Shown here one piece after another: positions 1 to 2,161 of a DNA stretch of 2,161 bases; position 1 is the stretch's first letter, and every line of letters begins with the position of its first letter. Below the pieces are notes generated by a model that saw nothing but the letters and a program-made list of their open reading frames with translations, ran no database searches and had not been told where the DNA came from. This DNA is from Naegleria gruberi (lineage: Eukaryota). Location of the stretch: NCBI GenBank assembly GCA_000004985.1, contig GG739285.1, one strand, 5' to 3'. The position numbers were made by a program, and so were the translations under genes.

Positions 1-325
1 AAAAGTCATTAAGATGTGCGCCCCGTTGTGAAATGATTTATTGTGTAGAGTTTCGTTATTTATTTGATTACTTTTGGGTGTGACTGGAATATTGTTTGGT
101 AAATGTTTGATTGGTATTATTACTATTGGAAACAGACGGAGTGGTTGGTCAACTTGGTTGTGTTCTTTCATTACTTTTTGACTTTTGATTCATATGAACA
201 AGATCTTGTTAGACCACTACTGGTGCTTGACTGGTTATTGTTCACTAACTTTTTCTTTTGCTTACTGATGGAAATTCTGAAGAATCAGGAAAATGATCAG
301 AACTTGCACAAGACTATTTGTTTAA

Positions 326-331
326 TTTATT
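326..331 (-). promoter_or_regulatory. Putative polyadenylation signal AATAAA for the kinase gene
   Basis: The minus-strand AATAAA lies ~46 nt downstream of the TAA stop in an AT-rich flank. More AATAAA copies occur further downstream on the minus strand (around plus ~35-65). Hexamer presence only; no transcript evidence. Confidence 0.3.
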
Positions 332-376
332 GTTATACTATTTTACATGATTAAAATACATTTAAACTATACAATT

Positions 377-844
377 TTAAAGAAGAATAAAAACATTAGA
401 GTTCTTATTCATTCTATAGTTATTGTAAATATCAACAAGGAGTTCCAATAATTGACTGTGAATTTCCTCAAAAAGTGGTCTTTCAGATACTTCAGTAGAG
501 AGACATTTGGAACCAATTGAGTATAATCGTTCTGCTTGGGACTTGTTCAAGCATTTAAAGGTTGTCATCAATTCATCAATTGTAATGAACCTCTTCAAAT
601 GGGCCTTTAGGTCAATTTGGGAAGTTGGGGATGGAGGAGTAACTCCAAAGAATTTTAAACATCTTTCTGTAAAGGCCTTTCCACTTCCACTTCCATTAGT
701 GTTAGAGCTTTGTGTTTCCAATGGTTTAGCTGCTTGAAGGATCTCATTCATCGTCACACCAAAGCTGTATATATCAAATTTTCTGTAATCAAACTCAAAC
801 CCAGGTTTGAGTGTGCCTTCTTTTCTCTGAACTAATTCTGGCGC
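377..844 (-). CDS. Terminal coding exon of a split Ser/Thr protein-kinase gene (kinase C-lobe; ends with TAA stop at 379..377)
   Basis: Read in the frame of minus ORF 377..865, starting at codon GCG (844..842). Translation: APELVQRKEGTLKPGFEFDYRKFDIYSFGVTMNEIL... This contains the APE motif (subdomain VIII), D-I-Y-S-F-G (subdomain IX) and ...ERPLFEEI...L (subdomain XI). The exon start is fixed by the acceptor AG at 846..845 (minus). The stop TAA is followed by an AT-rich 3' flank. Confidence 0.85.
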   Translation of the reverse strand, partial: APELVQRKEGTLKPGFEFDYRKFDIYSFGVTMNEILQAAKPLETQSSNTNGSGSGKAFTERCLKFFGVTPPSPTSQIDLKAHLKRFITIDELMTTFKCLNKSQAERLYSIGSKCLSTEVSERPLFEEIHSQLLELLVDIYNNYRMNKNSNVFILL

Positions 845-888
845 CTTTAATATTGATGAAACCAAACACTTATCTTATAGATACTTAC
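845..888 (-). other. Spliceosomal intron (44 nt, phase 0), GTAAGTATC...ATATTAAAG
   Basis: The minus strand reads ...CATTATATG|GTAAGTATCTATAAGATAAGTGTTTGGTTTCATCAATATTAAAG|GCGCCAGAATTA... Removing it joins the two ORFs in frame and regenerates the G-T-x-x-Y-M-A-P-E activation-segment motif. A TAA at 849..847 lies inside the intron, which explains the ORF break. Confidence 0.9.
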
Positions 889-1791
889 CATATAATGGGA
901 TGTTCCTGAAGCAGTTGCTGTTGTTGATTGATAATTATCAACTTGTTCTGAAACGTTAAAATCAGCAATTTTTACATCACCAACAAGCTGCAATCCATTC
1001 ACATCAACCATGTCTATTAAGATATTGGAAGGTTTGATATCGTAATGGATGATTTTCTCCTTGTGCATATAATTCAAAGTATTGGCACACTTTACAAATA
1101 CCATCAGCAGTTGATATAATTTACCAAAACTATTATTTCCAAATTCAGTAATTCGACAATTTTCCAATGAGAAATCCATTAATTTCAAATACAAATGAAA
1201 AGATTCAGATGTTTGCTCCTTGTGTACAAGATCAACTGTTCCATGATGCGAGTTCAGTTTTTGAAGGATTTCATATTCGTGTTCTCCAATTTTAACATCA
1301 CTGAATACCTTCTTTACCACATTATTATCACCAATCTTTCCTTTGTAAACTTTGCTGCAGAGAATGGCCTCTTGTTCAAATTTCTTGCTACCAATATCTA
1401 GATAGGTTCTTGGAGTGAGTTTTACAAAAGGAAATAGGCTGTATGCAATTGATTCAGAAAGATTGTGGGCAAGGTATTGTTCGTAAAATAAATATCCATC
1501 TTGTTTCTTGTGGGAGAGAATATACGAAACTGGACTGATCATGTCATAGGGCAAAGTGTATGGTCTCTTGACATACATCAAAAGATTTTCAAAAGCAAAC
1601 TTATAATTAAAGAATTCTGTCACTAAAACAGATGGATCAAGAAGTACCTTCTCCCCTTTCTTGGTGGACATCAATCCGTATTCAGAAATAGAGAATTTGT
1701 TCGACAGGTGCAAATCATACATGATAGCTTTTGCAAGGAAAAGTTTCACAAAATTATAGCTCGACTTCTCCCATGCTTTCTCTAACAGAGG
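889..1791 (-). CDS. Large internal coding exon: linker region plus kinase N-lobe through the activation loop
   Basis: A 301-codon open frame, open from 1797 and modelled from 1791. It encodes VYKGK-type beta-strands, VVKK (VAIK-like Lys), EHEYEILQKL (helix-C Glu), HKEKIIHYDIKPSNILI (catalytic loop), VKIADFN (DFG-like) and SGTSHYM. It ends in phase 0 directly before a minus-strand GTAAGTAT donor at 888. The 3' boundary is high confidence. The 5' boundary (acceptor AATAAG|, AG at 1793..1792) is model-based. The first in-frame ATG is at 1722..1720. Confidence 0.8.
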
Positions 1792-1884
1792 CTTATTTCA
1801 AATCATATGAATAATGTTTCGTTTGTTTCTAATACTTACAACCTTTTGAAGAATTTATAACTATACCAATAAGCGCAAACTTAC
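1792..1884 (-). other. Intron (93 nt, phase 0) linking the second ankyrin exon to the kinase exon. It contains an internal GTAAGT at 1839..1834 and a possible 3-nt micro-exon GTT (1842..1840)
   Basis: The donor is AACATG|GTAAGTTTG at 1884. The only acceptor that enters the kinase reading frame in phase 0 is AATAAG| (AG 1793..1792). Intermediate acceptors (TATAG| at 1861, CAAAAG| at 1843) lead either to an in-frame TAA or to a 3-nt exon followed at once by a second GTAAGT donor. Both the 93-nt intron and the 42+3+48 arrangement preserve the frame. Confidence 0.4.
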
Positions 1885-1971
1885 CATGTTGGAAATCATA
1901 ATATTGGTATGACTGAGAAGGCTATGAACAACTGATTTGTGATTATTGTAAAAGGCAACACTCAATGGATT
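1885..1971 (-). CDS. 87-nt phase-0 exon encoding one ankyrin-like repeat unit
   Basis: The minus-strand segment is open in only one of three frames: NPLSVAFYNNHKSVVHSLLSHTNIMISNM. It fits the ankyrin core pattern (T/N)PL..A....H..VV..LL. It is bounded upstream by the acceptor ...CTAAC...AAATTAG| (AG 1973..1972). It is bounded downstream by AACATG|GTAAGT (donor at 1884). It is exactly 29 codons long. Confidence 0.55.
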
Positions 1972-2020
1972 CTAATTTCAGAGTTGTTAGAAATATTACT
2001 CAGAGATCAGTAACACTTAC
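1972..2020 (-). other. Spliceosomal intron (49 nt, phase 0) with a CTAAC branch-point motif
   Basis: Minus strand: GTAAGTGTTACTGATCTCTGAGTAATATTTCTAACAACTCTGAAATTAG. It has a perfect GTAAGT donor. The TTCTAACAA branch-point-like element lies 14 nt upstream of the AG. The flanking exons are each open in exactly one frame and join in phase 0. Confidence 0.6.
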
Positions 2021-2107
2021 ACCAATGTTCACGTCAATAGTTTCTGAACTCAATAATAATTTTACAATAGTATCACTTCCAATTTTACTAGCAGCAACCA
2101 GTGGTGT
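2021..2107 (-). CDS. 87-nt phase-0 exon encoding one ankyrin repeat unit
   Basis: Minus-strand translation: TPLVAASKIGSDTIVKLLLSSETIDVNIG. This is a close match to the ankyrin consensus TPLH.AA..GH..IVKLLL...D.N. It ends with a complete codon immediately before GTAAGTGTT (donor at 2020). An in-frame TAG at 2110..2108 forces the exon start to 2107 via the TTAG| acceptor (AG 2109..2108). Confidence 0.55.
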
Positions 2108-2152
2108 CTAATATTCTGTAAAGAAAACTGTTTTTATGGATTAGCAACTTAC
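2108..2152 (-). other. Candidate 5'-most intron in the window (45 nt), GTAAGTTGCTAATCC...TTTTCTTTACAGAATATTAG
   Basis: GTAAGT is at 2152..2147 (minus). The pyrimidine-rich tract and TTAG| acceptor lie immediately before the ankyrin exon. The upstream exon cannot be confirmed. In phase 0 it would read TGA CAG TCA, with the TGA at 2161..2159 on the window edge. An alternative weak donor GTCAGT at 2156 avoids this. Confidence 0.25.
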
Positions 2153-2161
2153 TGACTGTCA

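Follow-up and report, generated by a model that had tools for sequence, protein, structure and literature searches.

Kinases with N-terminal ankyrin repeats ahead of the catalytic domain include ILK and TNNI3K. Here we describe a locus with the same domain order in a 2,161-nt stretch of contig GG739285.1 of Naegleria gruberi (hereafter, the window; positions count from its first letter, and the gene under study lies on the minus strand), where two bacterial-style open reading frames (ORFs) are very probably two exons of one ankyrin-repeat kinase gene, split by an ordinary 44-nt intron that would be removed in vivo. The likeness to ILK and TNNI3K appears to be one of generic domains only.

The nearest described relatives are five N. 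gruberi paralogues, found by a word-indexed search and an exhaustive HMMER search: XP_002674560.1 (43% identity), XP_002680160.1 (P0002; 33%, 95% query coverage), XP_002674929.1, XP_002671040.1 and XP_002668129.1. They share a linker-plus-kinase layout with the window gene, and two of them (XP_002680160.1 and XP_002674929.1) also carry N-terminal ankyrin repeats ahead of the kinase, as the window gene does; in XP_002680160.1, Ank_2 was matched at residues 66-129 with 26.5 bits, slightly under the cut-off. The family is marked by a non-RD catalytic loop (H-[YNH]-D-x-K-P-x-N), a DFG motif that reads DF[DNSG], the strings G-T-x-x-Y-M-[AP]-P-E and SFGVT, and the C-terminal motif …L(T/N)xxQAxK…G..C…RP.F. 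In the searches made, this ankyrin-kinase family appears to be restricted to Naegleria. The next non-Naegleria matches had E values of ~1e-11 in the word-indexed search and were multi-domain repeats of generic kinases in the exhaustive one, and these searches found no specific orthology to any named kinase subfamily outside Naegleria. Literature searches returned nothing specific on the Naegleria ankyrin-kinase family or on Naegleria intron gain. The GC content of the window (33.2%) agrees with the published 33% for N. gruberi NEG-M (PMC8296547), and an N. gruberi RNA-seq dataset is on record (PRJEB23822; PMC6142364).

A probable 44-nt intron between two overlapping reading frames

The ORF list of the window holds, on the minus strand, a 300-aa frame with a GTG start (847..1749) and a 162-aa frame with a TTG start (377..865), which overlap by 19 nt (847..865) in different frames, just as the preliminary description of this DNA had it. 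The minus-strand sequence at the frame switch runs …CAT TAT ATG, then GTAAGTATCTATAAGATAAGTGTTTGGTTTCATCAATATTAAAG, then GCG CCA GAA…, and the canonical donor and the TTAAAG acceptor placed there by that description, 44 nt apart, can be read at 888..845. The intron is of phase 0 and GT-AG type (GTAAGTAT…TTAAAG, 25% GC), and it falls between the Met and Ala codons of Y-M-A-P-E, at the end of the activation segment. The frames of the two ORFs differ because 44 leaves a remainder of 2 when divided by 3; both flanking exons are whole multiples of 3. An in-frame TAA inside the intron (849..847) ends the upstream ORF when the intron is retained. Excision yields …ASGTSHYM/APELVQRK…, followed by DIYSFG, …SERPLFEEI… and a TAA stop at 379..377. 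The kinase signature G-T-x-x-(Y/W)-M-A-P-E is thus recreated as GTSHYM/APE, and subdomains IX (DIYSFG) and XI are both found in the spliced translation, supplied by the downstream exon, as had been claimed.

All five copies of the extended donor GTAAGT in the window lie on the coding (minus) strand; the expectation over both strands is 1.03, and five or more were reached in one of 200 shuffles. The chance of an open 155-codon downstream frame in sequence of 33% GC is ~5e-6, and that of an open 301-codon frame ~5e-11. Together, the overlap with its frame switch, the open downstream frame and the enrichment of GTAAGT therefore form an intron pattern beyond chance. The element has GT at its 5' end within an extended donor and AG at its 3' end, four further GTAAGT sites lie on the coding strand, and the other short introns of the gene, which flank its ankyrin exons, are 42-49 nt long. 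Its removal gives one frame collinear with intron-less homologues, and its retention breaks the frame. By these sequence features, 888..845 is a routine short U2-type spliceosomal intron.

The locus would thus be one nuclear N. gruberi gene whose product has ankyrin repeats in its N-terminal part, then a linker, and a eukaryotic protein kinase domain at its C-terminal end. The spliceosome would remove 888..845 and join 889 to 844, and the spliced mRNA would encode a complete bilobal kinase domain ending at TAA 379..377. A transcript that retained the intron would reach a stop after 15 more codons (…HYMVSIYKISVWFHQY-stop, TAA 849..847) and would give a protein without the C-lobe.

Homology and structure across the junction

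The spliced product gave a single, unbroken match to Pkinase (PF00069) of 102.3 bits (cut-off 31.7) over profile positions 14-259 of 263, and the two ORFs taken apart gave 64.3 and 18.4 bits. Likewise, a single match to PK_Tyr_Ser-Thr (PF07714) scored 72.9 bits (cut-off 23.1) and ran to profile position 258 of 258, against 33.3 and 26.1 bits for the separate ORFs. The check proposed in the preliminary description, that one domain match should span the junction and score higher with it than without it, came out in favour of a single kinase gene.

To place the boundaries, we scored every GT…AG pair around the frame switch that spans 15-200 nt; of these 159 pairs, 42 leave the downstream frame open. 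Junction 888/845 ranked first in both comparisons. Against the paralogue XP_002680160.1 it reached 199.7 bits, with 188.2 for the runner-up and 134.0 for the unspliced product; a profile of the five paralogues, from which the window protein was excluded, gave 315.6, 301.0 and 203.6 bits respectively. The other splice-site pairs were rejected, as none came within 11 bits of 888/845 against XP_002680160.1 or within 14 bits against the family profile. The exact boundaries named beforehand were therefore the best of the 159 combinations.

No gap opens at the junction when the spliced product is aligned with XP_002680160.1 by BLASTP, and all five paralogues align gaplessly across it with a continuous G-T-x-x-Y-M-[AP]-P-E. 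Invariant positions of the six-sequence alignment around the junction are G371, T372, Y375 and M376, which close the upstream exon, and P378 and E379, with which the downstream exon opens. The AlphaFold2 model of the spliced domain is a complete kinase fold (mean pLDDT 80.2, pTM 0.81), with pLDDT of 88-92 at the junction residues and low confidence confined to residues 1-33 (below 50) and a 34-residue loop. A Foldseek search with this model returned whole kinase domains over ~300 aligned columns, with IRAK4 at the top (E = 1e-13).

Taken mechanically, the ORF list alone would also fit two separate prokaryote-like genes, or one gene read by programmed ribosomal frameshifting within the 19-nt overlap. 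We consider either extremely improbable and rejected both on homology. The DNA is that of Naegleria gruberi, and neither ORF alone amounts to a complete kinase domain. Frameshifting would place ~14 residues within Y-M-A-P-E, an invariant motif that carries no insertion in any paralogue, and against the five-paralogue profile the unspliced product falls ~112 bits below the spliced one (203.6 versus 315.6).

The deposited gene model ends at the proposed splice donor

Over 278 residues, the conceptual protein matches XP_002668137.1 (EFC35393.1), deposited as 'predicted protein, partial' from Naegleria gruberi NEG-M, with 100% identity, which bears out the earlier statement that the DNA is eukaryotic nuclear, not prokaryotic. 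The deposited protein corresponds to query residues 24-301, that is, to window positions 1722..889 in the same strand and frame. Its first residue is an internal Met (ATG 1722..1720), with the frame open and paralogue-like further upstream, and it ends at …GTSHYM, exactly at the proposed donor; exon 2 is therefore missing from the database. Compared with the gene proposed here, the deposited model has neither the downstream exon 844..377, with its APE, subdomains IX-XI and stop codon, nor the ankyrin exons. From the sequence, the real gene would comprise at least four or five exons; its product would be an ankyrin-repeat kinase whose catalytic domain is complete, the ankyrin part presumably being joined to the kinase part by splicing.

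The kinase domain and its atypical features

The large kinase exon (889..1791; 903 nt, 301 codons) encodes the linker, the N-lobe and the catalytic and activation segments, ends with …GTSHYM and covers Pkinase profile positions 14-164. Its frame is open from the acceptor AG at 1793..1792. The last exon (377..844; 468 nt including TAA 379..377) encodes APE, subdomain IX (DIYSFG), an insert, subdomain XI (…SERPLF…) and a C-terminal tail, all modelled with high AlphaFold confidence except over the insert. An AATAAA at 326..331 (minus strand), 46 nt 3' of the TAA stop, is a candidate polyadenylation signal of the kinase gene.

The catalytic residues fall in conserved columns (numbering of alignment A2): VVK49, E61, H138-Y-D140-I-K142-P-S-N145 and D166-F-N. 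The beta3 Lys, alphaC Glu, catalytic Asp, Lys and Asn, Mg-binding Asp, APE, subdomain IX Asp and subdomain XI Arg are present, and GTSHYM/APE, D-IYSFG and SER-P are all present only after splicing. HRD is replaced by HYD, as in a non-RD kinase, and DFG by DFN; both are family traits.

The GxGxxG glycine-rich ATP-binding loop is lacking. In alignment A1, a 4-residue gap without Gly stands where paralogues carry GKGGYG or GNGANG (window ~1330..1400, minus strand, residues LDIGSKKFEQEAILCSKVYKGK), and in alignment A2 at most the first Gly of the loop is kept (IGSKKFE). The loss is also reflected in the start of the Pkinase match at profile position 14 and in pLDDT below 50 there. Two paralogues, XP_002674560.1 and XP_002671040.1, keep the canonical GxGxxG that the window gene has lost. 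The loss therefore weakens the case for an active kinase, not that for membership of the fold. By modelled fold and by motifs, the protein is a member of the eukaryotic protein kinase superfamily. Since the glycine-rich loop is lost, HRD reads HYD and DFG reads DFN, the product may be a pseudokinase or a kinase of weak or atypical character.

After subdomain IX the domain carries an insert of ~36 residues (~715..599, minus strand; QSSNTNGSGSGKAFTERCLKFFGVTPPSPTSQIDLKAH) that none of the five paralogues has and that AlphaFold models with pLDDT below 50. It is probably a lineage-specific loop, predicted to be disordered, not an intron. A second intron was considered at this place and rejected: the insert has no GTAAGT, it is in frame and AlphaFold renders it as a low-confidence loop. 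Removal of the sole plausible GT…AG span in it, of 56 nt as counted by eye, would put the frame out of register.

Among solved structures, the best sequence matches were STK32A, SLK, TNIK and IRAK4 (E = 1e-10 to 1e-12). The complete kinase fold is held in common with these TKL- and STE-group kinases (IRAK4, SLK/STK10, TNIK, STK32A), at an identity of only 20-30%.

Ankyrin exons upstream of the kinase exon

Upstream of 1791 the gene extends into ankyrin-repeat exons and then runs off the contig, so that its 5' end is cut. Two such exons of 87 nt each lie on the minus strand at 1885..1971 (NPLSVAFYNNHKSVVHSLLSHTNIMISNM) and at 2021..2107 (TPLVAASKIGSDTIVKLLLSSETIDVNIG, which aligns with the ankyrin repeat …EIVKLLLTVPNVDVNLG of P0104), and between them is a 49-nt intron (1972..2020, GTAAGT…TTAG). 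When joined, exons 2107..2021 and 1971..1885 matched Ank (PF00023) with 29.3 bits (cut-off 21.1) and Ank_2 (PF12796) with 28.7 bits (cut-off 27.3). Their arrangement suggests that the ankyrin exons would be spliced to the kinase exon in one mRNA.

From 2108 to the contig end at 2161 the minus strand appears to be intron sequence, with a GTAAGT at 2152..2147 that would define a 45-nt intron if this donor is used. In the frame set by acceptor 2108, positions 2153..2161 (minus strand) read TGA CAG TCA. The donor feeding this acceptor may lie beyond the window, or the upstream exon may carry a stop.

Between the ankyrin and kinase exons, the interval 1792..1884 (minus strand) contains two GTAAGT donors 45 nt apart (1884 and 1839). 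It could be one 93-nt intron (1884..1792), two introns of 42 nt (1884..1843) and 48 nt (1839..1792) that flank a 3-nt exon GTT (1842..1840), or partly decayed coding sequence. One-intron and two-intron splicing both stay in frame. Read in the frame of the kinase exon, 1842..1792 gives VVSIRNKRNIIHMI-stop-NK, with the stop a TGA at 1800..1798. This resembles the ankyrin helix VAIRNKRYNTINLLRKK at the collinear position of XP_002680160.1 (score 37, a value attained in 4 of 5000 shuffles), and an Arg of that paralogue stands opposite the TGA. The scores disagree on whether the segment belongs to the protein: including it gave 317.5 bits against the family profile versus 321.8 when it was omitted, and 204 versus 199 in the pairwise comparison with XP_002680160.1. 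The segment may belong to a decaying or pseudogene copy, result from a sequencing error or be what is left of an intronised repeat.

Absence of the intron from paralogous loci

Three paralogous genomic loci come from the environmental metagenome ERR1078381 (ERZ929261), in which there is a Naegleria closely similar to NEG-M. The protein of one of them (L001) is 97% identical to XP_002671040.1, and those of the other two (L003 and L004) share 90%-identity clusters with XP_002674560.1 and XP_002668129.1. At the site equivalent to 888..845, all three loci are continuous. The intron is therefore lineage-specific, and comparison of the sequences suggests either a gain here or a loss elsewhere within the Naegleria-specific family. 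A scan of metagenome contigs for an orthologue found none, only an unrelated CaMK-type kinase (L005). A repeat search of the DNA gave short two-copy matches only, none of which ties the intron to a repeated element.

By our reading of its sequence, not a deposited model, L001 (1..360) has an ankyrin exon of ~84 nt with introns of 38 and 54 nt on either side. On the ERR1078381 contigs, a prokaryotic gene caller produced longer N-termini than the deposited proteins have (476 versus 452 aa for XP_002674560.1, and 357 versus 241 aa for XP_002668129.1), which suggests that these two deposited models are also truncated.

The continuity of the three loci, together with the very small size of the contig, could also be explained if the 44 nt were an insertion mutation or an assembly artefact in a once-continuous kinase ORF. 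We regard this as very unlikely, since a random 44-nt insert that starts with GTAAGT and ends with AG has a probability of ~2e-5 (at the base composition of the window, the per-position probabilities are 3.4e-4 for GTAAGT and 0.058 for AG). Moreover, the boundaries restore the conserved motif exactly, with zero residues gained or lost, the length and donor agree with those of the other introns of the gene, and the downstream frame is still open and conserved.

With the 44 nt taken as an intron, a more specific history can be proposed, in which it is a recent lineage-specific gain within Y-M-A-P-E and the 48-nt GTAAGT…AAG element upstream of the kinase exon (1839..1792) is an intronised ankyrin remnant whose removal bypasses the TGA at 1800..1798. 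We put this forward only tentatively and think it rather unlikely as a whole.

Integrity of the locus

Several observations weigh against a single working gene with a spliced intron. The intron has no positional conservation, being absent at the equivalent site in three of three paralogous loci, which read …TAT/TAC ATG, GCA/CCT CCx GAA… without interruption. The spliced junction or exon 2 was found at high identity in no Logan or other assembled protein of a 5.8-billion-protein collection, and the source contig is a tiny unplaced scaffold. An in-frame TGA lies within the first 9 nt of the coding strand of the window, before the GTAAGT at 2152, and another lies in the coding-like segment 1842..1792, where it may be a sign of decay; the loss of the glycine-rich loop may be a further one.

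Some of these observations would be explained if the locus were a non-functional, decaying paralogue, in which the 44 nt retain the structure of an intact intron and no working ankyrin-kinase is made. Such a pseudogene would account for the helix-like VVSIRNKRNIIHMI-stop-NK with its TGA opposite an Arg (score 37, 4 of 5000 shuffles, against the paralogue helix VAIRNKRYNTINLLRKK), for a glycine-rich loop deleted relative to XP_002674560.1 and XP_002671040.1, for the lack of any protein in the collection that matches the spliced junction or exon 2, and for a deposited model that is partial. However, frames of 301 and 155 codons have stayed open (chance ~5e-11 and ~5e-6), the catalytic residues and the conserved C-lobe motifs are all intact, and the TGA can be avoided in frame through the GTAAGT donor at 1839 or at 1884. 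The family profile also does not favour inclusion of 1842..1792 (317.5 bits with it, 321.8 without), though the pairwise score slightly does (204 versus 199). We therefore give the pseudogene perhaps one chance in a few, and favour a gene whose two kinase exons are joined across 888..845.

Other features of the window

On the plus strand, an 83-aa hydrophobic ORF (103..354) points towards the kinase gene, with 22 nt between its end and the stop codon of that gene. It had no Pfam match, and a possible short GTAAA…ACAG intron is located at ~99..135. The ORF could represent the 3' exon of a membrane-protein gene next to the kinase gene, or could be due to chance. The only hit of an Rfam scan was SNORD24 at 916..985 (minus strand), within the coding exon, with 24 bits versus a gathering score of 41 (E = 0.52), which we take as chance.

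Implications

A short intron in a kinase gene is biologically routine, and the practical value of the finding lies in the correction of an annotation, XP_002668137.1 being truncated at a splice donor. More generally, bacterial-style ORF calling on protist DNA cuts genes at very short introns. Of mild interest for the Naegleria family are an intron specific to one paralogue, a possible relic ankyrin segment with an in-frame stop, and the loss of the glycine-rich loop. If the recent gain of the 44-nt intron and the intronisation of the ankyrin remnant were true, the locus would offer a modest natural case of an intron being born inside a family of paralogues.

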